Shown: positions 802 to 55,372, numbered from the stretch's first letter. The stretch: 64,000 nt of DNA from Candidatus Nomurabacteria bacterium (GCA_028286645.1 JAQBRF010000004.1:91501-155500), one strand, 5' to 3'. Notes: generated by a model from the sequence alone, not told the origin. Made by a program: numbers and translations.

Positions 802-810
802 TGGTAAAAT
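802..810 (+). promoter_or_regulatory. extended -10 box TGGTAAAAT, 7 nt before the rseP ATG (leaderless-type)
   Basis: tggtaaaat at 802-810, ATG at 818, no SD. Confidence 0.4.
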
Positions 811-817
811 ATTTGCT

Positions 818-1930
818 ATGTCTATTTCTGCTGTACTCATTTTCTTAGTAATTCTTCTCGTCCTTGTTATCATTCATGAGTTTGGCCATTTTATTGTTGC
901 TAAATGGACCAATATGCGCGTGGATGAATTCGCTTTTGGCTTTCCGCCAAGGATTTATAGGAAAAAACTCGGAGAAACTACTTATAGCTTAAACGCCCTT
1001 CCAATCGGAGGATATGTTTCTATATGGGGCGAAAATGGAAGCGAGGAAGATAATGCAAGCGATGGTGCGAAAAACAATCCCCGCGCTTTCGGCAATCGTC
1101 CATGGTGGGCGCAGATCTTAGTGCTTTTAGCGGGAGTAACAATGAACATGCTTTTAGCCTTGATTATTCTTGTCTGCCTTTCATTTGGAAAAGTAGAAAT
1201 GAGCGCAGATGATCCTACTTATGGGTCAAGAGTAGAAGATACATCGTTAGTTGTTTTAGATGCATATCCAGAAAGCCCTGCATATAAAGCAGGACTTACT
1301 CCAGGCTCACGCCTTATAAGCGTTACTAGTAAAAATATGAAAGCAAGTCTTGTAACGGCCACATCCTTAGTAACTTTTATAGAAAACCATAGCAATGATG
1401 CAATTACATTTGTATATGAAAAACAAAATGGAGAACACGCGTCGACAACAGTCGCGGCTATATATGGAATAGTTCCAAACAAAAAGGCAGTAGGCATAAG
1501 CGTGGGAACTACTGGGTATGTTTATACTTCAACCGGGGAAGCTATAAAGTTGGGACTTCAGAGAACAAAAGACATAACTCTTCTTACATTTGGCGGACTA
1601 AAGACACTTTTAGTATCTGCGATTCATCGTGATGGAAGCGTACTTAACTCTCTTTCTGGTCCAATTGGAATTGCAAAGATCGTTGGAGAAACTAGCGCAT
1701 ATGGAATCATGCCAATACTTACACTTGTTGCCATTCTTTCTATAAACTTGGCTGTATTTAACATTCTCCCGCTTCCAGCGCTTGATGGCGGAAGAATTAT
1801 AATGGTGGTTATTGAATCAATAAGCCGAAGAAAGATTCCATTTAAATATTATTCGTGGCTTAACCTCGGGGGTTTTGCTCTGCTTCTTTTATTGCTTGTG
1901 GTGGTAACAGTACATGATGTTATCAAATAG
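818..1930 (+). CDS. rseP: site-2 protease, M50 zinc metalloprotease RseP family
   Basis: HEFGH zinc motif near the N-terminus within a TM helix, a central PDZ-like region, and the C-terminal LPLPALDGGR (LDG) motif. Confidence 0.85.
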   Translation: MSISAVLIFLVILLVLVIIHEFGHFIVAKWTNMRVDEFAFGFPPRIYRKKLGETTYSLNALPIGGYVSIWGENGSEEDNASDGAKNNPRAFGNRPWWAQILVLLAGVTMNMLLALIILVCLSFGKVEMSADDPTYGSRVEDTSLVVLDAYPESPAYKAGLTPGSRLISVTSKNMKASLVTATSLVTFIENHSNDAITFVYEKQNGEHASTTVAAIYGIVPNKKAVGISVGTTGYVYTSTGEAIKLGLQRTKDITLLTFGGLKTLLVSAIHRDGSVLNSLSGPIGIAKIVGETSAYGIMPILTLVAILSINLAVFNILPLPALDGGRIIMVVIESISRRKIPFKYYSWLNLGGFALLLLLLVVVTVHDVIK

Positions 1931-1941
1931 ATTTCCTAATT

Positions 1942-2517
1942 ATGCAAGATAGGTCGCCGCATTTTAATCAAGATGTTGAATTAAAAAATGAAGATTTTGA
2001 AAAGTCTCTCCAGCTTAATTCTCTTAAAAGTAAATTAGTTAGAGCTCAGTCTTTGGGTATAGACGTTCCTTTTGATCTGCCAGAAGCGAGCGATCCTCTT
2101 TATAGAGACAGGTATCGAGAAATGCAAAGGTTTATAGAAGGAAGGCTAGATGAGCATTATGAAAAGTTTGGTAAGAGTCTCGCACAAGATCCCCAAATGC
2201 GCATTCTTATAATGGAATATAATCAGGCAGTACTAGAAGAAAGAAGGTCTACATCTGGAAACTTCAGTTTGTTAACTCATCCTAGTTTTAGCAGGGTTAA
2301 GAAAAGATTACAGAAGCGTACAAGCAAAGTCTTGGGCGGAGTAAATATTTTACAAAAAGGAGAGATGGCTATAATAAGGAGAGAGGAGTTAGAAAATAAA
2401 ATAATTTCTCTTTTGTGTGCAAAGTACGAACGCGCCGGGTTGAATAACGATCCGTATAGATCTATAAGCACTTCAAGTATAAATATAGCGCAGGCCTTAG
2501 AAATTATGGGAGTATAA
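1942..2517 (+). CDS. hypothetical protein
   Basis: 191-aa ORF in the AT-rich background; no recognisable motif. Confidence 0.45.
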   Translation: MQDRSPHFNQDVELKNEDFEKSLQLNSLKSKLVRAQSLGIDVPFDLPEASDPLYRDRYREMQRFIEGRLDEHYEKFGKSLAQDPQMRILIMEYNQAVLEERRSTSGNFSLLTHPSFSRVKKRLQKRTSKVLGGVNILQKGEMAIIRREELENKIISLLCAKYERAGLNNDPYRSISTSSINIAQALEIMGV

Positions 2518-2524
2518 TATTTAT

Positions 2525-3094
2525 ATGAAAGATATCGAAATAGAAATTCAAGCCAGAATCCAAAAAAGTGAAACTTTAAAAATCTTCTTAGATAATAATG
2601 CTAAGTTTATTTCAGAAAACAAACAAGTCGATCAATATTTTACTCCAGCCCATGAAAATTTCGTTTCAGTTAAGCCCATTGAAGAATGGTTTAGGATAAG
2701 AGAAGAAAATGGAGCGTTTACGATAAATTATAAAAAATGGCATTACGAAAACGGAATAGGCCAGTATGCAGATGAATATGAAACTGAAGTGAAAGATAAG
2801 GAAGCGATGCTTAAGATAATTCAAGCACTTGATATGAAGCCACTTATTACTGTAGATAAAACCAGAAAGAAATGGATCTATAAAGATTTTGAAATAGCTT
2901 TTGATACAGTTGTAGGTTTAGGAAGCTTTGTTGAAATCGAATATAAAGGAGAAGGGCCAGTAGATCCGAAAGAAAAAACTAAAGAAATGGTTGATTTCTT
3001 AAAGGAACATGATTGCGGAACGATTGAATTAAATAATGGTGGATATCCAATGCTCCTTTTGTTTCCGGAAGATGCGCATTATATAAAAGCATAA
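2525..3094 (+). CDS. CYTH-domain protein (class IV adenylyl cyclase / triphosphatase-like)
   Basis: N-terminal EIEIQARI strand with the ExExK-type signature, and a later GSFVEIEYKGE motif, both typical of the CYTH/CyaB fold. Confidence 0.55.
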   Translation: MKDIEIEIQARIQKSETLKIFLDNNAKFISENKQVDQYFTPAHENFVSVKPIEEWFRIREENGAFTINYKKWHYENGIGQYADEYETEVKDKEAMLKIIQALDMKPLITVDKTRKKWIYKDFEIAFDTVVGLGSFVEIEYKGEGPVDPKEKTKEMVDFLKEHDCGTIELNNGGYPMLLLFPEDAHYIKA

Positions 3095-3100
3095 GTCTCT

Positions 3101-3108
3101 TGTATAAT
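3101..3108 (+). promoter_or_regulatory. extended -10 TGTATAAT, 7 nt before the proS ATG
   Basis: tgtataat then atcttttATG; no SD. Confidence 0.4.
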
Positions 3109-3115
3109 ATCTTTT

Positions 3116-4381
3116 ATGCGACAATCACAACTTTTTACAAAGACCAGAAAAGAAGCCCCCGCGAATGAAGTTTCCAAAAATGCAATCCTACTCATTCGGG
3201 CGGGTTACATTCATAAAGAAATGGCGGGAGTGTACTCATACTTACCACTTGGGCTTCGTGTGCTAAAAAAGATTGAGGATATTATTCGTAATGAAATGAA
3301 CACTATCGGTGGCATAGAAATGCGCACTTCTATAATTCAGACAAAGGAAGTATGGGAAAAGTCTAACCGATGGGATGATAACATTGTCGACAATTGGTTT
3401 AAGACTGAGCTTAAAAATGGAACAGAAATTGGCCTTTCTTTTACAAATGAAGAAGCATACTCAAGCATGTTAACTCAGTACATTCATTCATATACAGATC
3501 TTCCAATATACCCATATGATTTTAAAAATATTTTCCGCAATGAAACTCGCAGTAAATCTGGCATAATGCGCGGACGTGAATTTTATTGGAAGGCACTCTA
3601 CTCATTCTCAAAAGACGATGCAGAACACCAAGAATTCTATGAAAAAGCTAAGCAGGCCTATAAAAATATTTTCCAAAATGTCGGCATTGGACATATAACA
3701 TATATGACATTTGCATCGGGAGGCTCATTTTCAAAATTTTCACATGAGTTTCAGACTATTACTGAAGCAGGTGAAGATACTATCTATATAGATGAGGCAA
3801 AGGGTATTGCAATAAATAAAGAAGTGTACACGGATGAGGTCATAGAATCTCTTGGACTTAATAAAGATAAAATTATTGAACAGAAGGCTGTGGAAGTAGG
3901 GAATATTTTTTCTCTCGGTACTAAATTTTCTGAACCATTTAATCTTTCATTTACAAATGAGAGCGGAGAAAAACAACTTGTCACTATGGGAAGTTATGGT
4001 ATTGGTCTTGGCCGCTTGATGGGAACAATAGCGGAAGTATTAAGTGATGATAAGGGCTTAATCTGGCCTACTTCGGTATCACCATTTTCGCTACATTTGA
4101 TTGTGTTAGGAAAGGACAAAGAGGGTGACACATATAAAAAAGCAGAAGAGATTTATAATGAACTAACTAAAAAGGGGATTGAAGTTCTATTTGATGACAG
4201 AGATGAATCAGCGGGAGCGAAGTTTGCAGATAGCGATTTGATTGGAATTCCAATGAGAGTAGTGGTGAGCGATAAATCTATTGCCGCAGGCGGTGTAGAA
4301 ATAAAAGAAAGAAAAGGGGACAAGAGCGAAATCATTACGATTGAAGAATTATATAAAACATATAAACCGAATTGCGAATAA
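3116..4381 (+). CDS. proS: prolyl-tRNA synthetase (short form, no large editing insertion)
   Basis: N-terminus MRQSQLFTKTRKEAPANEVSKNAILLIRAGYIHKEMAGVYSYLPLGLRVLKKIEDIIRNEM matches the ProRS signature. Class II motifs are present and the C-terminus is an anticodon-binding-like region. Confidence 0.88.
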   Translation: MRQSQLFTKTRKEAPANEVSKNAILLIRAGYIHKEMAGVYSYLPLGLRVLKKIEDIIRNEMNTIGGIEMRTSIIQTKEVWEKSNRWDDNIVDNWFKTELKNGTEIGLSFTNEEAYSSMLTQYIHSYTDLPIYPYDFKNIFRNETRSKSGIMRGREFYWKALYSFSKDDAEHQEFYEKAKQAYKNIFQNVGIGHITYMTFASGGSFSKFSHEFQTITEAGEDTIYIDEAKGIAINKEVYTDEVIESLGLNKDKIIEQKAVEVGNIFSLGTKFSEPFNLSFTNESGEKQLVTMGSYGIGLGRLMGTIAEVLSDDKGLIWPTSVSPFSLHLIVLGKDKEGDTYKKAEEIYNELTKKGIEVLFDDRDESAGAKFADSDLIGIPMRVVVSDKSIAAGGVEIKERKGDKSEIITIEELYKTYKPNCE

Positions 4382-4803: not shown

Positions 4804-5106
4804 TTAGTTTCTTCCAGTCATCTCGTCCACGAGTTTTTTGAATACTGGAAGCACGCGGGTAACTTCTTCGCCGGCTTCACGGTGCAAGTAGCCGCTCCCC
4901 TGGAGACGGTTCAGGCCCTGTATGGTGTAGACTGCCTCCCGTATTCCGTTGTGGGGAAAGTCCGTATGAGTGATCGTCACCTCTGTAGGCATGACGCCCT
5001 TTGTCACCTTGGTGCATAGAAGGGCAGCCGCAGTGGCTTCCTCCGATGTCTGGAAAATGTCGAGCCAGACCCAAGGTGACGTTATATGATCCTTGTTAGT
5101 TCTCAT
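4804..5106 (-). CDS. hypothetical protein (100 aa), GC-rich class
   Basis: ORF in a region of about 50% GC. AAGGGG lies 9 nt upstream of the ATG on minus, and a terminator follows downstream. Confidence 0.4.
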   Translation of the reverse strand: MRTNKDHITSPWVWLDIFQTSEEATAAALLCTKVTKGVMPTEVTITHTDFPHNGIREAVYTIQGLNRLQGSGYLHREAGEEVTRVLPVFKKLVDEMTGRN

Positions 5107-5205
5107 GAATAAGACCCCTTAAGGTGGATGAAACAAGTTGGACTGCTCATGTTGTTTATATATAAAAGTCTTTAATTTGTCAACTACTATATGAAAGCCT
5201 AAAAA

Positions 5206-5214
5206 ATGGTAGAA
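5206..5214 (+). promoter_or_regulatory. extended -10 TGGTAGAAT, 6 nt before the mreB ATG (leaderless)
   Basis: aatggtagaatgctcccATG. Confidence 0.5.
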
Positions 5215-5221
5215 TGCTCCC

Positions 5222-6271
5222 ATGTTTAACCGTCTTTACCGCCAATTTTCTAACGATATCGGAATAGATTTAGGAACAGCTAATACGCTTGTTTACTTGC
5301 GTGGCCGCGGGATAGTTATAAATGAGCCATCAGTGGTTGCATTAAACACGAAAACCAATCGCGTAGTCGCAGTAGGAATGGAGGCGAAAAATATGATGGG
5401 TAGAACTCCATCTCACATTAGAATCGTCCGGCCGCTTGTAGAAGGTGTGATATCAGATTATGAAGTGACAGAAGAAATGCTTTCGTATTTAATTAACAAA
5501 GCAAATGATGCTGATAAGAAGTTATTTCGTCCAAGAGTGGTAATAGGAATTCCTGTAGGAATTACTAATGTAGAAATGCGTGCAGTATATGATGCGGCAA
5601 AATCTGCTGGTGCTCGTGAAGTTTACATAGTAGAAGAACCGATGGCGGCAGCTATCGGAGTGCAAATGCCAATCCATGATCCTGTGGGAAGTATGATAAT
5701 AGACATCGGGGGAGGCACGACGGATATTGCTGTTATCGCACTTTCTGGAATTGTGAGAGCTAAGAGTTTAAAAATAGCAGGAGACAGGCTTACACAGGAT
5801 ATTATTTCTTATATGCGCGATGAGTTTAAAATGTTAATTGGAGAAAAAACCGCAGAGCATATAAAGATTACTGTGGGATCTGCCCTGCCGGACGAAATCC
5901 CTGAAGAAATTAGCATAAAGGGAAGGGATTTGGTTACAGGGCTTCCGCGGGAAGCGATTATCACAGATGTTGATATACGCGAAGCGATGTATGCATCTAT
6001 TTCACAATTAGTGGATGCTATTCGTGAGGTATTAGAAACAACTCCGCCCGAAGTACTGGCAGATATCATGCAAAAAGGAATGATGCTAGCAGGGGGCGGA
6101 GCACTTATCAGAAATTTGCCCCAGCTTCTTGAAAGTCAGCTTAAAGTGCCTGTAACAATAGTGGATGATCCATTAACGGCGGTCGCCCGCGGAACAGGGA
6201 TTATACTGGAAAATGTGAATTTATATAAAGATGTACTAGTAGAAAACACTGATGACATATCTTTCCGATAA
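5222..6271 (+). CDS. mreB: rod-shape determining actin homolog MreB
   Basis: DIGIDLGTANTLVY, GMMGRTP, and IDIGGGTTDIAV phosphate-binding motifs; full-length at 349 aa. Confidence 0.95.
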   Translation: MFNRLYRQFSNDIGIDLGTANTLVYLRGRGIVINEPSVVALNTKTNRVVAVGMEAKNMMGRTPSHIRIVRPLVEGVISDYEVTEEMLSYLINKANDADKKLFRPRVVIGIPVGITNVEMRAVYDAAKSAGAREVYIVEEPMAAAIGVQMPIHDPVGSMIIDIGGGTTDIAVIALSGIVRAKSLKIAGDRLTQDIISYMRDEFKMLIGEKTAEHIKITVGSALPDEIPEEISIKGRDLVTGLPREAIITDVDIREAMYASISQLVDAIREVLETTPPEVLADIMQKGMMLAGGGALIRNLPQLLESQLKVPVTIVDDPLTAVARGTGIILENVNLYKDVLVENTDDISFR

Positions 6272-7025: not shown

Positions 7026-7101
7026 ATAGAATAGTTATTAGTAATTGGTTACTAGTAATTAGTGAATACACAAAGACATTTGGGAGGCTAATTGTCCGAG
7101 C

Positions 7102-7143
7102 CACAACTAATAACAAATAACTAATTACCATTTTTGCTATACT
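7102..7143 (+). promoter_or_regulatory. promoter with the shared CAACTAATAAC element and TATACT -10
   Basis: cacaactaataacaaataactaattaccatttttgctatact. The 11-mer caactaataac is identical to the element upstream of 42244. The ATG at 7150 lies 6 nt after the -10 box. Confidence 0.35.
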
Positions 7144-7149
7144 CTGCTC

Positions 7150-7305
7150 ATGCTTCGCTACATTATTTATATAATCTTGCTCCTCATAACTCTCTTTTTT
7201 GACACCGCATTAGGTGCACATAGAGTGCCAGTTTTTACATTAATCCTTTGTGTTATAGTGATAATATATGAATTTATTTCGCCGTACATTTACACGTCGC
7301 GCTAG
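7150..7305 (+). CDS. candidate small 2-TM membrane protein (51 aa)
   Basis: Leaderless ATG 6 nt after TATACT. Translation MLRYIIYIILLLITLFFDTALGAHRVPVFTLILCVIVIIYEFISPYIYTSR has two hydrophobic helices. It overlaps the mrdA start in another frame and sits where mreD would normally be, but is too short to call MreD. Confidence 0.25.
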   Translation: MLRYIIYIILLLITLFFDTALGAHRVPVFTLILCVIVIIYEFISPYIYTSR

Positions 7306-8965
7306 ACGTGCAAACTCATACGAAATCGCTCCAGAAGATGTATTCTTAGATTCGCAAAATCTATCGCAATTAAACATGGATCAAATGGAAGGGCAGCTTG
7401 AAAAGCCAATAGGCAGGAACATGTTTTATATAACAAGCATTATTGCATCTTTTTTAATTGTGGGTTTTTTAGCGAGATTGTATGACATGCAGATAGTAAA
7501 CGGAAGAGCATATGCTGACCAGGCAGATAGAAATCATTTAAAAAGCACTCCATTATTTCCTCTTCGAGGAACTATTTCTGATCGCAATGGCAGCTTACTT
7601 GCTTGGAATACTGTGAGTAGTACGACAGAGGAAGTTCCAGAAAGAGTGTATGAAAAAACTCCAGGATTTTCTCACTTGTTAGGTTATGTAAGTTATCCCA
7701 AGAAAGATCAAAGCGGAATCTTTTGGCAAGATTCATATTTAGGAAAAGATGGCATTGAAAAGAAATATCAAGATATTTTACAAGGAACCATCGGTGAGAC
7801 AGTTTTAGCGGTAAATGCCCAACAGAAAGTAGAGGCTAGGAATGTAACCGTAAGTCCTGTTAATGGCGAAAACATAAAACTTAGCATTGATAAAGGAGTG
7901 CAGGCGGAATTTTATAAAAATATTAAAAGTCTAGCGCTTGATTCAGGTTATATAGCGGGGGCGGGAGTAATTATGGATATACATACTGGAGAGGTATTAG
8001 CTATGGTAAGCTATCCGGAATATGATAATAATTTAATTACAAATGCTGCCACTCCACAAGAAAAAGACCAACTGGCAAAAGATTTGCTAGATAAAAATAA
8101 TAAATTTTTAAACCGCGCCGTCGGAGGGCTCTTTACTCCAGGATCAACAGTAAAGCCATTTATGGCAATAGCCGCGCTTATGGAAAATGTAATTACCCCG
8201 GAAAAACAAATTTATAGTTCGGGCGCACTAGTGATAAAGAATAAATACGGAGGACCTGACTCAGTTTTTAAAGATTGGAAAGCTCATGGATGGACAGACA
8301 TGCGTAAAGCTCTTGCTGAATCATCCGATGAATACTTTTATCAGGTAGGGGGCGGATACATGGATCAGCCAGGATTAGGTATTGCTCGCATTGATCAATA
8401 TGCTCAATTGTTCGGATTTGCCACTACCACCGGCATAGATCTTCCCGGAGAAGAATACGGCGTGATTCCCACCCCATCATGGAAGCAAAAGATTTTTAAC
8501 GAAGATTGGCTTTTAGGAGATACATATCATACTTCCATTGGGCAATATGGATTTCAAATAACACCGCTTGAGCTTGTGCGTGGTGTAGCCATGATTGCAA
8601 ATGGCGGATCTTTGGTTACTCCGCATCTTTTATCAGGATCTGAAACTGTACATATTGATTTGAAGTTAGATAAAGCCGACCTCGAAGTCGTGCGTGAAGG
8701 AATGAGACAGGGCGTAACTGAAGGAATCGGCGCAGCATTAAACATAGATGGTATACATGTAGCCTCCAAGTCTGGAACGGCAGAGCTAGGAGTTAAAAAG
8801 GATTTAGTAAATTCGTGGATAAGCGGATTTTTCCCATATGAAAATCCTAAATATGCCTTTGTTGTGATAATGGAAAAGGGCTCGGTCCATAACCTTCATG
8901 GCGCTATATTTGCAATGAGGGATACACTGCTCTGGATGCGCGACAACACTTCTTATACCAAGTAG
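7268..8965 (+). CDS. mrdA: penicillin-binding protein 2 class transpeptidase
   Basis: Follows mreBC. N-terminal TM helix, then the SxxK (GSTVKPF) and KSGT (ASKSGTAE) active-site motifs. Confidence 0.85.
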   Translation: MNLFRRTFTRRARRANSYEIAPEDVFLDSQNLSQLNMDQMEGQLEKPIGRNMFYITSIIASFLIVGFLARLYDMQIVNGRAYADQADRNHLKSTPLFPLRGTISDRNGSLLAWNTVSSTTEEVPERVYEKTPGFSHLLGYVSYPKKDQSGIFWQDSYLGKDGIEKKYQDILQGTIGETVLAVNAQQKVEARNVTVSPVNGENIKLSIDKGVQAEFYKNIKSLALDSGYIAGAGVIMDIHTGEVLAMVSYPEYDNNLITNAATPQEKDQLAKDLLDKNNKFLNRAVGGLFTPGSTVKPFMAIAALMENVITPEKQIYSSGALVIKNKYGGPDSVFKDWKAHGWTDMRKALAESSDEYFYQVGGGYMDQPGLGIARIDQYAQLFGFATTTGIDLPGEEYGVIPTPSWKQKIFNEDWLLGDTYHTSIGQYGFQITPLELVRGVAMIANGGSLVTPHLLSGSETVHIDLKLDKADLEVVREGMRQGVTEGIGAALNIDGIHVASKSGTAELGVKKDLVNSWISGFFPYENPKYAFVVIMEKGSVHNLHGAIFAMRDTLLWMRDNTSYTK

Positions 8966-9222: not shown

Positions 9223-9813
9223 TTACTTGCGATAGATGCGGTCGTGGGCAACTTTCTCGCCGTTGTGGGTGGCGGATTTCTCCGAGTACAAGGGTTTGAA
9301 GTAGTTGTCTTTGTACGCGACGCGGTCTACCACTTCAGTCGGACCGGTTGTTCGGAATTCCACGATAGTCATATCGCCATCTCTTTCGGCACTTGCCGTA
9401 AGAGGTAAGATGCGGAGAAGCTTGATGCCTTGAGAATTGTAACTTCCCACCTGCATCGTTCCTTCCGTGCTCTCCCCAGGTTTCAGTTTCGGAATCGGGA
9501 TTTTCGTTCTGATGATCGACGCGATACCTTGGGGCACTATAATGGTAAGCGCCGCGTCTTCGTCATAGGGCTTTTGTCCCATGACGCTTCCAAGCCAAAG
9601 GCCGGTTTCCAGATCAAAGGAGTGCAGAGCGTTGATGGCGGCGTCGTATTGGTACCGCTCGAGTTTTTTCTCCCCGGTAATGAGGTCTTCGTCCACCATG
9701 ATGAAGGTTTCGTTTTTGAGTGCCGAAAACTTCGCATGACGAATGATTGCTAAACCTACCACCAGAATCGCAACTGCGAGTACTATTCCTGTCACTGCTT
9801 GCGAGGTTTTCAT
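9223..9813 (-). CDS. membrane-anchored hypothetical protein (196 aa), GC-rich class
   Basis: N-terminal TM helix (VTGIVLAVAILVVGLAII). AAGGAA 8 nt upstream on minus, elevated GC, and a terminator downstream. Confidence 0.5.
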   Translation of the reverse strand: MKTSQAVTGIVLAVAILVVGLAIIRHAKFSALKNETFIMVDEDLITGEKKLERYQYDAAINALHSFDLETGLWLGSVMGQKPYDEDAALTIIVPQGIASIIRTKIPIPKLKPGESTEGTMQVGSYNSQGIKLLRILPLTASAERDGDMTIVEFRTTGPTEVVDRVAYKDNYFKPLYSEKSATHNGEKVAHDRIYRK

Positions 9814-9946
9814 CTTGTGTTCCTTTCAATGAATGAGCGGTTGATGTCATCTATATTATAACATAACCTATAAGTAATGTCAAACTAAGTATAAATTAAA
9901 ATAAAAGTATGTTAAATTTCTATAAACCACAGTAGGAAGAATTCTG

Positions 9947-10258
9947 ATGGAAACCGAAGACATTTTGCGAGAGATGCAAAAGTGCAGTAATCGCTATATT
10001 GTTATTTTGAGGGCGTTCAGGAATCATTTAACTTCGACAGGGATCCGCATTGGAACGCCGGGGCGCGTGAAAGCAAATATCACTCGTCATTACCGACTGT
10101 ATACAGACCTATATCAATTTAAAGAAGAAAAGGCTAAGGAAATCATCGGGCAAATTATTCGGGAGGATCAGGAGTTTGTCGATGCATTCTTCCGGCGTCA
10201 AGATTGGTCCTATAAAGATATGCAGCCTGAATTGGAGAAACGGATAAGGAGAGAATAG
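9947..10258 (+). CDS. hypothetical protein (103 aa), GC-rich class
   Basis: AGGAAG SD-like sequence 8 nt upstream; followed by the gcgga...tccgc+T5 terminator at 10258-10285. Confidence 0.45.
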   Translation: METEDILREMQKCSNRYIVILRAFRNHLTSTGIRIGTPGRVKANITRHYRLYTDLYQFKEEKAKEIIGQIIREDQEFVDAFFRRQDWSYKDMQPELEKRIRRE

Positions 10259-10285
10259 CGGATTAAAGAGTCCGCTTTTTATTTT
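10258..10285 (+). terminator. intrinsic terminator
   Basis: gcgga-ttaaagag-tccgc followed by tttttattttt. Confidence 0.55.
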
Positions 10286-10304
10286 TGCCAAACTATCAAA
10301 ATAT

Positions 10305-10313
10305 GGTAGAATA
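10305..10313 (+). promoter_or_regulatory. TTGCCA-16-TAGAAT promoter with TG extension for greA
   Basis: ttgccaaactatcaaaatatggtagaat; the ATG at 10321 is 8 nt after the -10 box. Confidence 0.5.
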
Positions 10314-10320
10314 CTCAGAT

Positions 10321-10776
10321 ATGGAATACTTAACACACGAAAAAAAGGATGAGCTTGAAATGGAATTAAATCACTTGAAGACTGTACGCAGAAAAGAAGT
10401 TGCAGATGCGCTTCTATATGCAAAGTCTCTGGGAGATCTTTCTGAAAACGCAGAATATCAGCAAGCGCGTGAGGATCAGGCGAATTGCGAAGAAAGAATT
10501 GCTCACATTGAACAGATTTTAAAAAATGCAGTGATCGCAGATAAGCATCATGCTGGAGTTGTAGAAGTAGGCACAACTGTTGTATTGGTTAAAGAAGGAG
10601 ATAAGGCTGAGAGGCAATTCATGATCGTTGGAAGCGAAGAAGCTGATTCTCAAGCAGGTAAAATTTCAAATGAATCTCCGATAGGAAAAGCCATCTTGGG
10701 TAAATCAAAGGGAGATAAAGTTACTGTGAGCGCCCCTAAAGGAGAAATTCTATATACCATTAAATCAATAGCATAA
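10321..10776 (+). CDS. greA: transcription elongation factor GreA
   Basis: MEYLTHEKKDELEMELNHLK N-terminus, then GDLSENAEYQQARE and the C-terminal SPIGKAILGKSKGDKV FKBP-like motif. The start is moved to 10321 because the listed 10285 start would include the promoter. Confidence 0.9.
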   Translation: MEYLTHEKKDELEMELNHLKTVRRKEVADALLYAKSLGDLSENAEYQQAREDQANCEERIAHIEQILKNAVIADKHHAGVVEVGTTVVLVKEGDKAERQFMIVGSEEADSQAGKISNESPIGKAILGKSKGDKVTVSAPKGEILYTIKSIA

Positions 10777-11150: not shown

Positions 11151-11159
11151 TGCTATAAT
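11151..11159 (+). promoter_or_regulatory. extended -10 TGCTATAAT, 8 nt before the lysS ATG
   Basis: tgctataattttttcatATG. Confidence 0.4.
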
Positions 11160-11167
11160 TTTTTCAT

Positions 11168-13088: not shown

Positions 13089-13541
13089 ATGAAAAAAGCA
13101 CCAACCAAGGCAGACGTGATTCTGTTGGGAACTGAGGAAACTGATGGTCGCGTGATTTCACTCGATCGCGCAGTCGATACTGTAGCCACGCCCTTTCCGT
13201 ATGAAATCGTGAAAATTACGCCAATTGCCACAGAGATCAAGGGAGATGAGGACTATGTGGTGTTAGCGCGGTGGAATGGGGCCCTGTACACATTTTTCTG
13301 GCCCCATACATTCCCTCGCGCCACAAAACATACCGGGTTCTTTCTGTTTTCTAACGTAATGTCCAGTGAGGGGGTGTGCTCCAGGTTGTGTCACATTCTT
13401 TATGAACGGGCGCTTCCTCTTCCCAGAATTCACAAAGAAAGCGTGGAATTAAATCACGATAACCCGGAGACTAAATGGCGCACCTTTATAAAAAGGACGT
13501 CAGAATCCAAATGGGAAGAAATCAGGACGGTGGGTAAATAA
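13089..13541 (+). CDS. hypothetical protein (150 aa), GC-rich class
   Basis: ATG at 13089 preceded by GGGAG 4 nt upstream; the listed 13053 start is a GTG. Elevated GC, and the terminator at 13543-13575 follows. Confidence 0.4.
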   Translation: MKKAPTKADVILLGTEETDGRVISLDRAVDTVATPFPYEIVKITPIATEIKGDEDYVVLARWNGALYTFFWPHTFPRATKHTGFFLFSNVMSSEGVCSRLCHILYERALPLPRIHKESVELNHDNPETKWRTFIKRTSESKWEEIRTVGK

Positions 13542-40894: not shown

Positions 40895-40932
40895 ATGTAT
40901 TGATCTAGTTACCCATAACAGGGAGTTGAAAC

Positions 40933-41514: not shown

Positions 41515-41558
41515 CGTTCGTGCTCCTGTGGTATTTTAGCCGGCGGCTCTATGCGCCG

Positions 41559-41617
41559 GCTCTTTCTTTTTATATTATAGTTTGACTTACTAAAAATAAG
41601 ATGTAGTGTTTGGGTAA
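41559..41617. repeat. 59-bp direct repeat, copy 2
   Basis: gctctttctttttatattatagtttgacttactaaaaataagatgtagtgtttgggtaa. Preceded by a terminator hairpin (gccggcg...gcgccggc) whose sequence differs from the hairpin before copy 1 but whose structure is analogous. Confidence 0.8.
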
Positions 41618-41640: not shown

Positions 41641-42153
41641 ATGAAAAGGACGGTAGAATCTGGGAAATTGCATTTGCCGGAGCTCGCGAAATATCTGCAA
41701 ATGTGCCGGCTCATGATGAAGCCTCGCCTTAACCAGCGAGAATTCTCACAAAAGATCGGCACTAGTGATCATGTGGTGATTGATCTGGAATGTGGCGTAA
41801 CCATGGACCCGAAGCGAGCCATTCTGGAAAAATGGGCCAAAGTGACTGGAGGCTCATACACCAGGATGGTTCAGATTCTGACCTTCGAGAAGTTCGGCAT
41901 TGCGGTGGTTCCTTCAACGTGCGGGAGTGTCTGGTCTTCGCAAATCCTTCAGATGGGGGGAGAGTTGGTAATGGTGACACTGCAGAAATGCGAACCGTTG
42001 CCTTTCCTCTTCTCGGCATCAAAGCAGGAAAGCGATAAGAAGTTCCAGTCTCGGAAACGAGCAACAAGGGATGAGATCGAAAGGTTCAAGGAAACTCCGC
42101 GTCCAACCATGTCTGTAGGGCGCGTTGTTTCCGGACGATCCACACGTGGCTAA
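41641..42153 (+). CDS. XRE-family helix-turn-helix protein, GC-rich class
   Basis: LNQREFSQKIGTSDHVVIDLECG Cro/C1-type HTH near the N-terminus. Its 5' region has a degenerate duplicate at 35376-35460. Confidence 0.5.
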   Translation: MKRTVESGKLHLPELAKYLQMCRLMMKPRLNQREFSQKIGTSDHVVIDLECGVTMDPKRAILEKWAKVTGGSYTRMVQILTFEKFGIAVVPSTCGSVWSSQILQMGGELVMVTLQKCEPLPFLFSASKQESDKKFQSRKRATRDEIERFKETPRPTMSVGRVVSGRSTRG

Positions 42154-42179
42154 TAAGCTTTCAAGAAAATGTATTCAAA

Positions 42180-42205
42180 GGCCTCCGAGGAGGGCCTTTT
42201 CTTTT
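42180..42205 (+). terminator. intrinsic terminator
   Basis: ggcctcc-gag-gagggcc followed by ttttcttttcc. Confidence 0.55.
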
Positions 42206-42207: not shown

Positions 42208-42237
42208 CTAGCAACTAATAACCATTAACTATAAACT
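42208..42237 (+). promoter_or_regulatory. promoter with shared element CTAGCAACTAATAACC (TAGCAA-17-TAAACT)
   Basis: 15/16 identical to the element at 45294-45309. The -10 box is 6 nt before the ATG at 42244. Confidence 0.45.
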
Positions 42238-42693: not shown

Positions 42694-42717
42694 ATGATTT
42701 TGTTATAATTTGATTCT

Positions 42718-44655: not shown

Positions 44656-44735
44656 TATATCAGTAGAAATTACTTATATTTGGCGCCTGCCTTATTTCAT
44701 CGCATTAAATCTAATTTAGTGTAAACTAAATACAC

Positions 44736-45230
44736 ATGGACCTGGATTTCAAAAGAAGTCAGTCAGTAAAACGCTTTGGTATCAAGCTTGAGTTCAGTTA
44801 TTGGCTCTTAGCTATCGCTTTTACACTCTTTACATTTATCATCACCCTTAATCCGGCCTTGGTAAAAGCAGATCCTTATCTCTCGCTTCAATTGTCACTG
44901 TGTATTCCTCTTTATTTTAGTTCAATTTTTGCCCGGGCAAAGATAAGCCTCAATCCACAAAAAGTTCTTTTATGGGAGGAATATGGATTTATAGTTTTTA
45001 TGTTGGCATATGGTATGACTATAAATGTCATCGGTATTCTTTTAACAAATCTTGTTAGTCTCCATATCGGACTGTATTTCTGGGGCACAAACATTCTGGC
45101 TTCACTTATTTATACGGCAATGGAGGTGCATACCCACGAAGCTATATTAATGGCGAAATTACCTAAAGATATATATTTTATTTTGATTTTACTTATTCTC
45201 GGCATACTGCCATCTCTTGGTTTGTACTAA
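44736..45230 (+). CDS. hypothetical polytopic membrane protein
   Basis: 164 aa with four or five hydrophobic helices. Confidence 0.45.
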   Translation: MDLDFKRSQSVKRFGIKLEFSYWLLAIAFTLFTFIITLNPALVKADPYLSLQLSLCIPLYFSSIFARAKISLNPQKVLLWEEYGFIVFMLAYGMTINVIGILLTNLVSLHIGLYFWGTNILASLIYTAMEVHTHEAILMAKLPKDIYFILILLILGILPSLGLY

Positions 45231-45293: not shown

Positions 45294-45323
45294 CTAGCAA
45301 CTAGTAACGTGTAACTATATACT
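45294..45323 (+). promoter_or_regulatory. promoter with shared element CTAGCAACTAGTAACG (TAGCAA-17-TATACT), leaderless
   Basis: See 42208; the -10 box is 6 nt before the ATG at 45330. Confidence 0.45.
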
Positions 45324-45329
45324 ATTATT

Positions 45330-45713
45330 ATGAATCCATATTTATCAATTTCTGTTGGAGACTCTGCGACATTGATACATTATATTGTTGACGGAGAAAT
45401 AGTTGTATCACATACGCATCCAATTGGATTCAAAAATATTGAAGCTGAAGGAATGAATGTAATCGCGGGATCGAAATTAGTAGATGGAATACTTTACGCG
45501 CTAGAATTCATATCTTTACACGATAGAATTCCTACGAACTTTAAATTAATCGCTCCAAGATATGCAACATGGATAGGCGAAGTGATAGAGAACACATCTT
45601 ATTCACAGTTCTACACGAATGGCGCACCAGTAAGTGTTACACTTGAGGGTACAGAAGAAGCTCCTTTCTCTTATGCAAGACATACGCAAACCATATTCTC
45701 GTTCAAGGTCTAA
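45330..45713 (+). CDS. hypothetical protein (127 aa)
   Basis: ORF with a leaderless promoter. Overlaps the next ORF for about 80 nt in another frame. Confidence 0.4.
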   Translation: MNPYLSISVGDSATLIHYIVDGEIVVSHTHPIGFKNIEAEGMNVIAGSKLVDGILYALEFISLHDRIPTNFKLIAPRYATWIGEVIENTSYSQFYTNGAPVSVTLEGTEEAPFSYARHTQTIFSFKV

Positions 45714-47058: not shown

Positions 47059-47095
47059 TAATAAGGAACATTACTGATACAATAGTTAGTACTTT

Positions 47096-47308
47096 ATGGC
47101 AGATACCGATATAGATACAATAGAAGGTCGCGTAATAGAAGCTCTTCCCAGTACTCTTTTCCGCGTAGACACTGGAAATGGAAAAATTATGCTCTCATAT
47201 TTAGGAGGAAAAATGAGAATTCATAAAATAAAAGTATTAGTTGGAGATAAAGTTTTAGTGCAGGTGGATCCATACGGAGGCAAGGGGAGAATTATCAAGC
47301 GTATATAA
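47096..47308 (+). CDS. infA: translation initiation factor IF-1
   Basis: 70 aa; S1-like OB fold with the GKMR...KVLVGDKVLVQVDPYGGKGRIIKR signature. Confidence 0.9.
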   Translation: MADTDIDTIEGRVIEALPSTLFRVDTGNGKIMLSYLGGKMRIHKIKVLVGDKVLVQVDPYGGKGRIIKRI

Positions 47309-47504
47309 AAGATAATTTTCAATCGACAGTTCTCAATTCCCACTTAGTTTTCAATGAATTAATGTTTAAAAGTTGAAGAATTGTTTATTATTGAAATGAT
47401 GAATTGATAATTGTAAAGAAGGCCTCTGGTCTGTCTCCGGGGAGTCTTTAGGATTTGATTTGCAAAAAATCACAAAATATACTATAATTATAACCACTTT
47501 TCTC

Positions 47505-47618
47505 ATGAAAATAAGATCGTCAATAAAGCCAATTTGTTCAAAGTGTCAGATGATAAAGCGAGGCGGAGTGCTTCGCGTAATTTGTGTTACTCCTAAACAT
47601 AAGCAGGCTCAAGGATAG
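47505..47618 (+). CDS. rpmJ: 50S ribosomal protein L36
   Basis: Not in the supplied ORF track (37 aa). Translation [37 protein letters not shown] matches the L36 zinc-ribbon signature (C..C...C....H). TATAAT at 47483. Confidence 0.85.
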
Positions 47619-51507: not shown

Positions 51508-52011
51508 ATGCTCATCGCACTATACCAAGCCGCTAACATGTATTTTCCGGACTCCAACAAACTCGATCAGCCCTATCGGATATTAGAGAATCGTGAAGAA
51601 CTTTTTTCCCATTCGGAAGTTGCCACATCATGGATGTGGCAACTGTTGCAGGCCATAGACGCCATGATGGATATGCCCATCATGGCGCATGTGGCGATTC
51701 CATATCGAGCGCGGAAGTTTCTCCCTGATTACTGGGGAGTGAAGGTGCTTTTCACGACATTGCCTAAGAATTACCGAAAGGGGTCACTGCCAAAGGTTGT
51801 TAACGAACAAGGAGATCGGCTCGTGCAAAAGCTCCTTGCCCTTCGCTGTGTGGGGAAAGAGATAAGCTGTGATCCGATCAAGCCTGCGGAATATTGGGAA
51901 GAATTCCTGCGCACCGCGCTTCTTGCGGAGAGAGATCGAGTCTTTAAACAAACCGAAGATGAGATCCAAAAAGCCCAAAGCCTCCGAAGTCTGTACAAAG
52001 TAATCAAGTGA
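51508..52011 (+). CDS. hypothetical protein (167 aa), GC-rich class
   Basis: AAAGGGGA 5 nt upstream of the ATG; elevated GC. Confidence 0.4.
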   Translation: MLIALYQAANMYFPDSNKLDQPYRILENREELFSHSEVATSWMWQLLQAIDAMMDMPIMAHVAIPYRARKFLPDYWGVKVLFTTLPKNYRKGSLPKVVNEQGDRLVQKLLALRCVGKEISCDPIKPAEYWEEFLRTALLAERDRVFKQTEDEIQKAQSLRSLYKVIK

Positions 52012-52803: not shown

Positions 52804-52845
52804 ACTTAGAAATTATTTATTAGAATTTAGAAATTATTACATACT

Positions 52846-54732
52846 ATGTCAAAAATAATTGGAATAGATCTTGGAACTACAAACTCCGCAGTGGCAATCA
52901 TTGAAGGAGGCCATCCAAAGATAATTGAAAACCTAGAAGGAAACCGTACGACACCATCTGTTGTTTCGGTAAATAAAAATGGCGAAAGAGCAGTTGGGCA
53001 AATCGCTAAGCGTCAGGCAGTTACAAATCCAGAAAACACCATCTATGGAGTGAAACGTTTTATGGGGCACTCATTTACAGATAAAGATGTACAGGATGAC
53101 ATTCCGCGGGTGGCATATAAAATAAAATCTGGGAATGATGGAGGCGTGCTTATAAATTTGGGTGGCAAGGATTCTCGTCCAGAAGAAATAAGCGCGATGA
53201 TCTTACAGAAAATAAAGGCAGATGTAGAAGCGAAACTCGGAGAAAAGATTACAGAGGCAGTTATCACAGTACCTGCATACTTTAATGATGCTCAACGCCA
53301 GGCTACAATCGCGGCAGGTAAAATAGCGGGCCTTGATGTAAAGAGAATTATTCCAGAACCAACGGCTGCGGCTTTAGCATATGGATATAACAGCTCTAAG
53401 AATGAAAAGATTGCCGTGTATGACTTAGGAGGAGGAACATTTGATATTTCCATTTTAGAAGTAGGTGATGGCATTGTGGAAGTGAAGTCAGTCGATGGGG
53501 ATTCACATTTAGGCGGACGCGATATTGACCAAAAGTTTGTGCGATTTATAGCAGAAGAATTTAAAAAGGATCAAGGAATAGATGTTACAAAAGATCCTCT
53601 TGCACTTCAGAGATTAGATGAAGCGGCAGAAAAAGCAAAGCATGAACTTTCAACCCAGGCAGAAACCGAAATAAATATTCCATTCATCACTTCAGGGGCT
53701 GATGGTCCCAAGCATTTGCTTATGAAAGTAACGCGTGCCAAGTTAGAAGAAATAGCCAAGCCTTTTATCGATAGATCGATTGAGATCACCAAACGCGCAC
53801 TAGATAATTCACCATTTAAAAAAGAAGATATCCATGAAATCATCATGGTGGGAGGACAAACACGTATGCCTATGGTTATAGAAGCGGTAAAGGCGCTGTT
53901 TGGTAAAGAACCAAATCGTTCCATTAATCCAGATGAAGTGGTGGCGCTTGGCGCTGCAGTTCAAGCTGGGGTATTACAAGGAGATATTGGGAAAGATATT
54001 ACTTTACTTGATGTGACTCCGCTTACTCTTTCTATCGAAACTATGGGGGGAGTAGCTACGCCGATAGTAAAGAAAAATACAACCATTCCAACTAATGCTT
54101 CACAAGTATTTTCTACTGCTGCTGATAACCAAACTTCTGTAGAAATTCACATCACCCAAGGAGAGCGTCCAATGGCGGCAGATAATAAATCTCTAGGCAG
54201 GTTTATCTTAGACGGCATTCCTCCAGCTCCACGAGGCATGCCACAAGTAGAAGTAACGTTTGATATCGACGCAAACGGTGTGTTAAATGTAACTGCAAAA
54301 GATAAAACTTCTGGAAAAGTTCAGTCAATTAAGATTGAAGCATCGTCTGGGCTTACGGATGATGAGATAAAGAAGATGCAGGCAGATGCTGAAGTTCATG
54401 CGGATGAAGATAAGAAGAAAAAAGAATTCGTTGAATCAAAGAATATGGCCGACGTTCTCGTTCACACTGCAGAGAAAGCTCTTAAAGATGCAGAAGGGAA
54501 AATAGGCGATGACATTAAAAAAGAAATAACAGATGCAATTGAAGAAGTAAAGAAAGCTCAAAATGGTGGAGATACTGAAGTGCTTAAAAAATCCACGGAA
54601 GATCTTTCACAAAAGTTGATGAAGATAGGAGAAGCAATGAAGACTGCGGGGGATAATGCTGCTCCAAATCCCGCACCAGAAAGCCCTACCGATATTCCAG
54701 AAGATAAAAAAGAAGGAGAAACTAAGGCATAA
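52846..54732 (+). CDS. dnaK: molecular chaperone DnaK (Hsp70)
   Basis: [26 protein letters not shown] and the rest of the canonical Hsp70 signatures. Confidence 0.97.
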
Positions 54733-54762
54733 AAAAGTGGCCGGAGTTTCCGGCCACTTTCT
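54731..54762. terminator. bidirectional intrinsic terminator
   Basis: gtggccgg-agttt-ccggccac, flanked by aaaaaa upstream and tttctgg downstream. Confidence 0.65.
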
Positions 54763-54770
54763 GGTCTTAT

Positions 54771-55238
54771 TCAGAATGGAACATGCATGTACAGGCCGTA
54801 GATCACGTCATGGCCAATAGGGATGATGGCCGGCAGCTCTGGGCAATTGACGAGAGTCAATTTATTGAGCGCTGGATAAAACGAATATTCAATCCATCCC
54901 AGAGGCCTCCGCATGCTGTTACTTCGCCCAGCTACGAATCCGTTAGGACCGCAATTCCCTGTAGACCAGAGTTCCCGGATGGCAGTGCGAAGTTGTACCT
55001 CAAGACACGCAACGGGCTCAAACATCTCTTCCCACAGCTTTTCAATAAGCGCCCCCGAAGTTGCGGGAAATTTGCTGTCCATGCTCCGGATGACTCCGAA
55101 ATAGCCGGCGTCAGTCTGGAAAGACCCATTCGGCTCTTTAAGCTGGAGCACCGGAAATGGCTCAGGGATACGTGCGAGACATTCGGGAAATGGCTCAGGG
55201 AGGGAAAGCTTGGTGAAAGGCAACAGTCGCGAATGCAT
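54771..55238 (-). CDS. hypothetical protein (155 aa), GC-rich class
   Basis: ATG at 55238 (MHSRLLPF...); the listed longer ORF begins with TTG. Convergent with dnaK behind the bidirectional terminator. The overlapping plus ORF 54783..55319 is the alternative reading. Confidence 0.3.
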   Translation of the reverse strand: MHSRLLPFTKLSLPEPFPECLARIPEPFPVLQLKEPNGSFQTDAGYFGVIRSMDSKFPATSGALIEKLWEEMFEPVACLEVQLRTAIRELWSTGNCGPNGFVAGRSNSMRRPLGWIEYSFYPALNKLTLVNCPELPAIIPIGHDVIYGLYMHVPF

Positions 55239-55372
55239 ATTTGTCCTATTTCTTTTAATCAGGAAAATCCTGATCTTCAAAACCTATCCTATATAAAGAA
55301 AAGGGGGATGTCAAAATGAAAATAATGATTTTGTTTTAACCGATAAAATATGGTATAACTTCAATATAAACT

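Follow-up and report, generated by a model that had tools for sequence, protein, structure and literature searches.

Actinobacteria and Deinococcus-Thermus are well known to contain leaderless genes, in which a TAnnnT box lies about 10 bp upstream (PMC3160421, PMC6028130), and the -10 spacing of such genes in Mycobacterium tuberculosis is 6-8 nt (PMC6028130). In the GeneMarkS-2 scheme, M. tuberculosis and Deinococcus deserti belong to group C, in which TAnnnT stands 6-8 nt ahead of the start mainly in operon-first genes, Shine-Dalgarno-led genes coexist, and 25-50% of transcripts are predicted to be leaderless (PMC6028130, PMC3160421). In addition, leaderless genes were predicted in some (group C) Mycoplasma, and the group C genomes with genetic code 11 are almost all high in GC (bioRxiv 10.1101/2022.07.25.500264). 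In this study, we analyzed a window of 64,000 nt (the whole stretch of DNA, with positions counted from its first letter) from Candidatus Nomurabacteria bacterium (GCA_028286645.1 JAQBRF010000004.1:91501-155500), in which an extended -10 promoter motif recurrently abuts the ATG of genes; these genes probably produce leaderless or nearly leaderless mRNAs. The organism belongs to the Candidate Phyla Radiation (CPR, or Patescibacteria), which holds a large share of bacterial diversity, has reduced ribosomes and is almost entirely uncultured. Transcription and translation initiation in CPR organisms is understood mostly by analogy.

The arrangement in the window is similar to that of group C genomes in its spacing, its concentration in operon-first genes and its coexistence with Shine-Dalgarno-led genes. 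However, it differs from them in its low GC (39%) under genetic code 11, in a TRTGn extension in 75% of sites, in a Shine-Dalgarno usage of about 10-18%, in that half of the genes carry no signal, and in its lineage (CPR/Paceibacteria). In Bacillus, promoters of the TRTGn type as a rule retain a -35 box and are followed by leaders that have strong Shine-Dalgarno sites, whereas the promoters here have no -35 information and abut the start codon. The likeness lies in the T-R-T-G-n stretch upstream of TATAAT, which offsets a weak or absent -35 and is referred to as the -16 region of Bacillus subtilis among the extended -10 promoters of Gram-positives (as cited in PMC4245973). The Mollicutes Mycoplasma gallisepticum and M. 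pneumoniae also have small AT-rich genomes, -10-only promoters and some leaderless transcripts (PMC4245973). In M. gallisepticum, however, TRTGn was found at 25 of 1061 transcription starts, with nine leaderless transcripts and a 5′ untranslated region mode near 15 nt (PMC4245973), compared with TGn in about 75% of sites and a predicted leader mode of 0 nt here. The archaeal group D likewise has a promoter at a fixed distance from the start and 5′-AUG mRNAs, which in archaea are the majority mode for operon-first genes, but the archaeal TATA/BRE elements lie about 26 nt upstream and serve the archaeal RNA polymerase, whereas a bacterial -10 box lies 6-9 nt upstream here. Our full-text literature searches found no paper linking leaderless expression to CPR, Patescibacteria or Parcubacteria. 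Leaderless-type expression, known in other bacteria, is apparently undescribed so far for the CPR lineage.

By exact protein look-ups, the window belongs to a 514,133-bp contig of a metagenome-assembled genome (locus tags JWN37_). Nearly all genes of the window lie on the plus strand. The MreB relatives, with identity up to 90%, come from CPR/Patescibacteria genomes assigned to Paceibacterota, Nomurabacteria and Parcubacteria. Pfam annotation of the window proteins upheld the gene names of the first-pass annotation of this DNA, namely, in the 5′ part, an RseP-type M50 protease, ProS, MreB, MreC, PBP2, GreA, LysS, MraZ-RsmH-FtsL-FtsI and a DsbA-like protein; in the middle, an aminoacyl-tRNA synthetase (aaRS)-like protein, PPDK/phosphoenolpyruvate (PEP)-utilizer proteins and AlaS; and in the 3′ part, the rpsM-rpsK-rpsD-rpoA-rplQ-rplM-rpsI cluster, GrpE-DnaK-DnaJ, a W/Y aaRS and a D/N-type aaRS. 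A tRNA scan and an Rfam scan of the window gave zero matches, so the leaderless-type motif does not lie within an RNA gene. Genes were called mechanically as non-overlapping open reading frames (ORFs) of at least 100 aa with the first ATG as the start (73 starts); this rule misplaces some starts, and its effect is to dilute rather than inflate the signal. A -10 box was defined by T1, A2 and T6 plus at least 5/6 identity to TATAAT, the gap as the number of nucleotides between the end of the hexamer and the ATG, and an extended -10 site as TGnTA[TAG]A[AC]T. For comparison, we used 28 close-clade loci (MreB at least 73% identical, 471 genes) and 52 distant Paceibacteria loci (739 genes). A motif pool of 164 sites from the window and the 28 close loci was chosen by hexamer and ATG distance alone.

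We found that a -10 box stands at gap 6-8 before 18 of the 73 first-ATG starts of the window versus 7 of 1064 control ATGs (0.7%; Fisher 1.4e-17), the latter being 1 of 314 internal in-frame and 6 of 750 out-of-frame ATGs. When the 40 nt upstream were shuffled in 2000 trials, the mean was 2.7 and the maximum 8. The gap profile at the window starts has a sharp edge, with no box at gap 5, then 9, 5, 4, and 3 boxes at gaps 6-9, and about 0.7 per gap farther upstream. The recurrent -10 motif reported by the first-pass annotation is therefore real and stronger than it stated, and the comparison of TAnnnT spacing with shuffles that it had proposed exceeded the expectation from composition. Furthermore, the window contains 29 extended -10 sites, 25 of them on the plus (gene-coding) strand, and independently of any gene calls an ATG follows 15 of these 29 sites at gap 6-8, where 1.5 are expected; the share of such sites that abut an ATG is roughly half in the window and 60% in the clade. 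The exact form TGGTAKAMT occurs six times (5207, 10304, 20086, 22321, 24547, and 40886) versus 1.9 expected, and six was reached in 1 of 100 shuffles.

Several details of the earlier description needed revision. Among the seven sites that it had listed, 5206, 10305, 20086, 22321, and 40886 fit the consensus, with 5206 and 10305 each off by one base (5207 and 10304), but 802 (TGGTAAAAT) and 55351 (TGGTATAAC) do not, and the list missed 24547 (TGGTATAAT), 6 nt before ATG 24562. The 14-mer AACTGGTATACTTT said to be common to two promoters is real, but it lies at 20083-20096 and 22318-22331. We rejected it as evidence of a promoter duplication, since the window contains 120 repeated 14-mers (about 20 by chance) and no alignment of the flanks was seen; the motif itself accounts for 9 of the 14 bases.

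An artefact of composition or annotation, with AT-rich DNA, TAA/TAG stops near the first ATG and mis-called starts mimicking the signal, is the least probable of the explanations that we weighed. TATAAT and TAGAAT do contain stop codons able to bound an ORF, starts were called as the first ATG, and loose TAnnnT shows small extra bumps at gaps 0 and 4. However, the shuffles fell far short of the observed count, counts at other gaps of these regions do not rise above background, the TG dinucleotide is enriched 12-fold (see below), and the motif-to-ATG test is independent of gene calls. The start codons are supported by three lines of evidence: Pfam domains start at residues 2-13 of the proposed proteins (10 in MreB); the deposited annotation has the identical start for 9 of the 10 leaderless-type genes tested, including the non-obvious 15505 and 20101; and ortholog tblastn alignments begin at residue 1 with zero offset nearly always.

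The 164 pooled sites gave the consensus TRTGnTAtAaT with no -35 box. TG at -15/-14 was present in 123 of 164 sites versus 9.8 expected (12-fold; about 75%), with T-15 in 79% and G-14 in 82% taken singly; T-17 occurred in 106 of 164 (65%), a purine was preferred at -16, and T-12, A-11 and T-7 were invariant. The G after TG (position -13) in the consensus first proposed showed no preference in this pool and was incidental. A search for a -35 at 15-19 bp in the same sites gave no information, TTGACA matches being no better than in a displaced control. Scans for the classical TTGACA-17-TATAAT arrangement gave 43 versus 53.5 and 53 versus 46.9 in shuffles, that is, no enrichment, which indicates that the leaderless-type promoters are not bipartite. 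In addition, terminator-like hairpins were enriched over shuffles (27 vs 15; 23 vs 15), and terminators stand immediately ahead of some sites (10257-10276 before greA; 42177-42199 before 42244). At 9883-9855 on the minus strand, the motif is paired with a perfect TTGACA at 17 bp in a leadered gene, and this pairing indicates that the motif is the promoter -10 of the organism. Furthermore, TRTG at -17 to -14 together with T-12, A-11 and T-7 match the DNA contacts of sigma regions 2.4/3.0. These data support the view that the motif has every sequence property expected of a housekeeping-sigma extended -10 element.

The related loci gave similar results. In the close clade, 25% of first-ATG starts have a box at gap 6-8, and the profile runs from 2 at gap 5 to 46, 31, 41, and 26 at gaps 6-9 over a background of 5.7. 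In the distant loci, 11% have a box, and the peak is again at gap 6 (47 vs 7). Behind the 235 extended -10 sites of the window and the close loci, an ATG stands at gaps 6-10 in 56, 30, 18, 26, and 12 cases (142 in total), compared with 3 at gap 5 and a background of about 3, and 132 of the 142 ATGs open an ORF of at least 80 aa. No enrichment of GTG or TTG was found behind these 235 sites (0-2 GTG and 0-3 TTG at gaps 6-9). The frequency of the box rises from 14% in genes no more than 10 nt behind a co-directional gene to 43% where the upstream distance exceeds 100 nt, which is promoter behaviour rather than ribosome-binding-site behaviour. The signal is concentrated at the first genes of transcription units, and the exceptions are promoters embedded in upstream genes.

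These results also bear on a second alternative, in which the motif would be an RNA-level, A/U-rich translation signal of the group B (Bacteroidota-like) non-Shine-Dalgarno type carried in longer transcripts. The low Shine-Dalgarno usage (9-13% of genes), the absence of the anti-Shine-Dalgarno in some Parcubacteria (PMC9297842) and the presence of the motif ahead of some genes with tiny intergenic gaps are in its favor. However, the invariant positions are the sigma contacts and not an A-rich stretch, the frequency grows with intergenic distance instead of being uniform over first and internal operon genes, leadered genes carry the motif together with TTGACA at 17 bp, and its register is fixed where rRNA complementarity would slide. 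We therefore regard such a signal as very improbable, though slightly less so than an artefact.

Individual orthologs retain the promoter to different degrees. For mreB, TGnTA(G/A)A(A/C)T was found in 26 of 27 close orthologs with a gap of exactly 6 in 25, and the spacer sequence is variable. For mrdA, TGTGnTAnnnT is kept in 24 of 26 close orthologs with the box at gap 6-9 (exactly 8 in 22). The mrdA box lies within an overlapping small hydrophobic ORF, whose third codon positions giving T-15 and T-12 are always T despite synonymous options, and the encoded residues vary while TAnnnT is retained. For proS, a box at gap 6-9 was found in 15 of 18 close and 29 of 41 distant orthologs (44/59). Retention is about 40% in greA and lysS (10 of 24 close orthologs for lysS): 16 of 26 close greA orthologs have no box at gap 6-9, and several have an extended -10 at about gap 16-17, which would give a leader of about 10 nt with no Shine-Dalgarno site. 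The box is essentially never present among orthologs of mreC, mraZ, and rsmH. In relatives (L001-L044; e.g., lysS, mraZ, rsmH, and mreB of L030/L034/L044/L073), we also observed 2-4 short direct repeats upstream of many genes, with a period of about 7-9 nt and containing CTAA/CTA (e.g., cctaaatcctaatgcctagagcctaattatctaattttctATG), which end in CTA plus a pyrimidine-rich 5-6 nt ahead of the ATG. These repeats may be degenerate TAnaCT boxes or another signal.

In a curated census of 76 genes of the window, 26 are of the leaderless type (box at gap 6-9), about 14 are Shine-Dalgarno-led, and 6 (infA, rpmJ, rplQ, rplM, dnaK, and 26376) have a -10 at 10-19 nt, with predicted leaders of 5-13 nt, and no Shine-Dalgarno site. 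About 30 operon-internal genes, mostly no more than 10 nt behind the preceding gene, have no recognisable signal. The leaderless-type set includes housekeeping genes (five aaRS genes, MreB, PBP2, FtsI, GreA, RseP, and YchF) as well as accessory ones (two GNATs, a deaminase, an SDR, GH18, CDPS, and unknown proteins), and the ribosomal-protein, dnaK/dnaJ, and mraZ operons have no leaderless-type box and use leaders. Thus, the motif is not specific to core genes. The proposal of the first-pass annotation that leaderless initiation is the default mode for the core genome is tenable when recognisable promoters are counted, about half or more of which end next to an ATG, but it is overstated when genes are counted (26 of 76). 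GGAG lies close to the start in only 1 of the 26 leaderless-type genes, where it overlaps the TRTG region, and the spacer of 6-9 nt is variable in sequence and too short for a Shine-Dalgarno site or any other leader. In infA, rpmJ, rplQ, and dnaK (47075-47096, 47482-47505, 50283, and 52846), a -10 at 12-19 nt would give leaders of 5-13 nt with no Shine-Dalgarno site, and rpmJ is the head of the rpsM-rpoA-rplQ operon. Such short leaders are a third initiation context beside the leaderless and Shine-Dalgarno-led ones.

The DNA itself shows the identity and position of the motif, its restriction to ATG, its strand bias, its conservation in orthologs, and its dependence on intergenic distance. From these we infer where transcription starts and that translation is leaderless. 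In our reading, to which we give a probability of roughly 0.8, housekeeping-sigma (sigma-A-type) extended -10 promoters give rise to leaderless or nearly leaderless mRNAs, as in group C genomes. The -35-independent TRTGn-TAtAaT promoter would be read by the housekeeping sigma, and RNA polymerase would start about 7 nt past the -10, so that the A of the AUG, or a base 1-3 nt ahead of it, becomes the 5′ end. Such a transcript would have no room for a ribosome-binding site, and the ribosome with initiator tRNA would recognise the 5′-terminal AUG. If the transcript must start with AUG, one expects the three features seen here: a strict minimum gap of 6 nt, restriction to ATG, and agreement with the spacing in M. 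tuberculosis.

Some observations weigh against this reading. The related loci all surround mreB and hence are not independent samples, and no mapped transcription starts for Paceibacteria came up in our literature search. Five to seven boxes lie within or a few nucleotides behind a co-directional gene (2525, 23335, 24562, 15505, and 38686), where read-through and re-initiation could operate. At gaps 8-9, a leader of 1-3 nt is as likely as a true 5′-AUG. In addition, the 3′ end of 16S rRNA was sought in the 80 related loci and not found, and the state of the anti-Shine-Dalgarno was gauged only indirectly, through a GGAG peak at -11/-10.

The boxes behind co-directional genes also suggest that the promoters could be real but mostly secondary, with expression coming mainly from read-through or short-leadered transcripts and from other kinds of Shine-Dalgarno-independent translation (re-initiation or unstructured A/U-rich regions). 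Several boxes sit in the 3′ end of the upstream gene, with 7-nt spacing and the stop inside the -10 (2525, 23335, and 24562), the operon-internal genes (about 30) are evidently translated with neither a Shine-Dalgarno site nor a promoter, and the displaced or absent boxes of greA orthologs and the short-leadered infA, rpmJ, rplQ, and dnaK fit as well. Nevertheless, neither the abrupt rise at gap 6 nor the restriction to ATG would be expected unless the 5′ end itself matters, and terminators or divergent genes lie ahead of mreB and the monocistronic aaRS genes, which leaves them no source of read-through. We therefore consider this explanation unlikely, although it is the strongest competitor of leaderless initiation. 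At three of these gene pairs, which lie 7 nt apart, the upstream TAA stop stands inside the downstream TATAAT (TA-TAA-T, 6 nt, ATG; 2513-2518, 23323-23328, and 24550-24555), and this compact stop/promoter/start arrangement would also permit termination-reinitiation.

The leaderless-type sites are described here from 5′ to 3′, each with the interval from the motif through the ATG; all but one are on the plus strand. TGGTAAAAT lies at gap 7 before the ATG of the RseP/M50 protease (818-1930; 802-820), whose M50 domain starts at residue 9, whose deposited start is identical, and whose -10 stands at gap 6-7 in 4 of 6 close orthologs. It is followed by gagTATAAT at gap 6 before the CYTH protein (2525-3094; 2510-2527), with the upstream TAA stop within the -10, the domain starting at residue 4 and an identical deposited start, and by ttgTATAAT at gap 7 before ProS (3116-4381; 3100-3118). 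TGGTAGAAT precedes both MreB (5222-6271; 5207-5224) at gap 6 and GreA (ATG 10321; 10304-10323) at gap 8, the latter right after the terminator at 10257-10276 and with the N-terminal domain of GreA starting at residue 3. Between mreC and mrdA, TGCTATACT stands at gap 6 before a 51-aa hydrophobic ORF (7150-7305; 7135-7152), and within this small ORF TGTTATAGT stands at gap 8 before PBP2/MrdA (7268-8965; 7251-7270). LysS (11168-12991; 11151-11170) is preceded by TGCTATAAT at gap 8. The FtsI-type PBP (ATG 15505; 15489-15507) has agcTATACT at gap 7 inside an ftsL-like gene; its deposited start is the same, and 6 of 10 orthologs keep the box. The DsbA-like thioredoxin protein (17854-18525; 17837-17856) has TGATATAAT at gap 8.

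In the middle part, TGGTATACT stands at gap 6 before both a GNAT/pyrophosphatase-like protein (ATG 20101; 20086-20103), with an identical deposited start, and a cytidine/dCMP deaminase (22336-22791; 22321-22338), whose domain starts at residue 3. A GNAT (23335-23910; 23320-23337) with TGTTATAAT and an SDR (24562-25296; 24547-24564) with TGGTATAAT, whose adh_short domain starts at residue 4, both have gap 6 and the upstream TAA stop within the -10, and agtTATAAT at gap 6 precedes an unknown protein (27721-28431; 27706-27723). A weaker candidate is ccgTACAAT at gap 9 before YchF (32588-33694; 32570-32590); YchF has been reported to modulate leaderless-mRNA translation in E. coli (as cited in PMC12641178), and here it is encoded with TACAAT 9 nt ahead of its own ATG. 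The sole leaderless-type site on the minus strand is TGTTAAAAT at gap 9 before the cyclodipeptide synthase (ATG 34390; 34388-34408). Divergent from it, TGTTATAAT at gap 7 precedes a truncated class II aaRS-like protein (34445-35188; 34429-34447), and ctaTAAAAT at gap 7, weaker and without TG, precedes a PEP-utilizer protein (38686-39798; 38670-38688).

Toward the 3′ end, AlaS (42718-44655; 42701-42720) has TGTTATAAT at gap 8, with the domain starting at residue 5 and an identical deposited start. Unknown proteins are preceded by gtgTAAACT at gap 8 (44736-45230; 44719-44738) and by ctaTATACT at gap 6 in two cases (45330-45713; 45315-45332, and 63219-63938; 63204-63221). The class I W/Y aaRS (57164-58180; 57148-57166) has TGTTAAAAT at gap 7, the AspS/AsnS-type aaRS (58822-60231; 58804-58824) has TGTTATAAT at gap 9, and the GH18 protein (60867-62102; 60852-60869) has TGTTATACT at gap 6. 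At these gaps, the -10 boxes that had first been placed close to the ATG were confirmed for rseP, mreB, greA, 20101, and 22336 and, among the variants, for proS, lysS, mrdA, and the DsbA-like, aaRS-like, and aspS/asnS genes. Four other genes had been taken as leaderless and are not: dnaJ, where TGGTATAAC (TATAAC) lacks the invariant last T and stands 13 nt ahead of ATG 55373 (55351-55375, plus strand); the gene behind site 40886, which has a 38-nt leader and CAGGGAG ahead of ATG 40933; rplM, with TATAAT at gap 17; and the PPDK-like gene 35573, with TATAAC only.

Upstream of three leaderless-type promoters of small membrane proteins, we noted CAACTARTAAC (7104-7114, 42212-42222, and 45298-45308), with 5 matches at up to one mismatch versus 1.8 expected and inconsistent spacing. 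An imperfect hairpin at 7026-7135, between mreC and the small ORF, has this element as its 3′ arm (-22 kcal/mol, z = -3.0).

The Shine-Dalgarno-led genes form a second class. Most of them have a strong TTGACA or TTGACT 17 bp upstream of an often weak -10 (TAGAGT, TAGTGT, TAGTTT, or TATCCT), a leader of 35-50 nt, GGAG 6-8 nt ahead of the ATG, and their own intrinsic terminator. For instance, a TTGACT-17-TGGTATACT promoter (40866-40935, plus strand) is followed by the 38-nt leader, CAGGGAG, and ATG 40933 of a high-GC ORF with a terminator at 41538-41561. On the minus strand (9811-9883), a perfect TTGACA-17-TGTTATAAT promoter is followed by a leader of about 41 nt, the Shine-Dalgarno site GAAAGGAA, and ATG 9813 of another high-GC ORF with a terminator at 9205-9180. 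A third promoter, TTGACT..TGATATAAT (60234-60314, plus strand), has a leader of about 50 nt and the Shine-Dalgarno site TAGGGAGA, and its high-GC ORF (ATG 60312) gave no Pfam match.

The Shine-Dalgarno-led ORFs are short (median 148 aa), and many are on the minus strand. Their GC is 0.43-0.56 versus 0.30-0.42 in leaderless-type genes, with no overlap (Mann-Whitney U = 0, P = 1.7e-7), and 0 of 13 have a Pfam match versus 21 of 24 leaderless-type genes (P = 1.6e-7). In addition, tblastn of these ORFs against the 80 related loci gave no match, and a homolog search in 5.8 billion proteins found none for the two queried (the 40933 and 9813 ORFs). In the relatives, TTGACW stands upstream of 35% of Shine-Dalgarno-led genes versus 4-5% of leaderless-type genes. 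A k-mer search of the non-leaderless upstream regions brought out only GGAG (the positional peak at -11/-10); AACAC, another candidate, stems from redundancy of mreC orthologs. From these sequence patterns, both -35 recognition and Shine-Dalgarno pairing appear functional in the clade and to serve another gene set.

About 15 short ORFs (77-212 aa) lie in high-GC islands of 0.43-0.56 versus 0.37 in neighbouring genes, with third-codon-position GC up to 0.64. They are found at 4804-5106(-), 9223-9813(-), 13089-13541, 18799-19221(-), 19673-20014(-), 26966-27604, 40933-41514, 41641-42153, 51508-52011, 56654-57031(-), 58226-58711(-), 60312-60758, 62319-62747(-), and 62881-63114(-), and about half have an N-terminal hydrophobic segment. 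Most of them show the layout of the Shine-Dalgarno-led class (TTGACA/T-17-TAnnnT, a leader of about 40 nt, GGAG, and a terminator), and none matched Pfam or the 80 related loci. They may be acquired, phage-derived, or fast-evolving. At 5106-5222 and its counterpart in L003-L027, a divergent minus-strand promoter (-35 TTGACA) near mreB is conserved in position, and its cargo varies: several relatives carry here Shine-Dalgarno-led ORFs whose GC is above average and which are mostly mutually non-homologous. In relatives, a conserved TTGTCAA stands about 27 nt ahead of the mreB -10; considered as a -35 of mreB, it is too distant, and it is the TTGACA of this divergent promoter. Moreover, a 64-nt direct repeat (97% identical; 35312-35375 and 41554-41617) flanks a 6.2-kb PEP-utilizer cluster plus one homolog-less ORF. 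The repeat contains a terminator tail, a TTGACT-17-TAGTGT promoter, and the start of the leader, and behind its 35.3-kb copy lies a mini-ORF of 15 codons (35397-35444) that has GAGG as its Shine-Dalgarno site.

It is conceivable, at odds somewhat short of even, that genomes of this clade contain two expression grammars: a conserved low-GC set expressed as leaderless mRNAs from TRTGn promoters that have no -35 and often lie in the end of the gene ahead, and a set of short, homolog-less, high-GC genes with fast turnover, expressed from TTGACA-17-TAnnnT promoters with leaders of about 40 nt, GGAG sites, and terminators of their own. Leaderless initiation would then be the native mode of a CPR ribosome, and Shine-Dalgarno-led initiation would mark a distinct gene pool that was acquired or is fast-evolving.

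Two further loci of the window deserve mention. At 33701-40832, the minus-strand cyclodipeptide synthase (Pfam CDPS, E = 4.6e-12) and the truncated aaRS-like protein (247 aa) are divergently encoded, and behind them come a PPDK_N/PEP-utilizer protein of 1038 aa and two PEP-utilizer mobile-domain proteins. Together, these genes are a candidate for a small biosynthetic cluster of a CPR organism. At 20101-32640, there is a run of accessory enzymes (two GNATs, four NUDIX proteins including one NUDIX-APH fusion, a deaminase, a serine hydrolase, a methyltransferase, an SDR, and a histidine phosphatase), which ends with a helix-turn-helix protein, a tyrosine integrase (29500), and a large serine recombinase (31009). 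This run may be an integrated island, and its genes use native leaderless-type promoters all the same.

The anti-Shine-Dalgarno motif is undetectable in about half of Parcubacteria (PMC9297842), and leaderless initiation of the kind proposed here would offer a testable explanation for its loss; the existence of two expression grammars, if true, could account for that loss in parts of Parcubacteria. The split by GC, length, and conservation could serve to sort native from variable genes. Furthermore, gene-start prediction in thousands of CPR metagenome-assembled genomes would change, as callers based on the Shine-Dalgarno site would misplace starts, and promoter parts of the form TRTGnTATAAT plus 6 nt plus ATG would become available for the emerging genetics of CPR organisms. 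Finally, extensive leaderless expression would not be confined to the high-GC Actinobacteria and Deinococcus.

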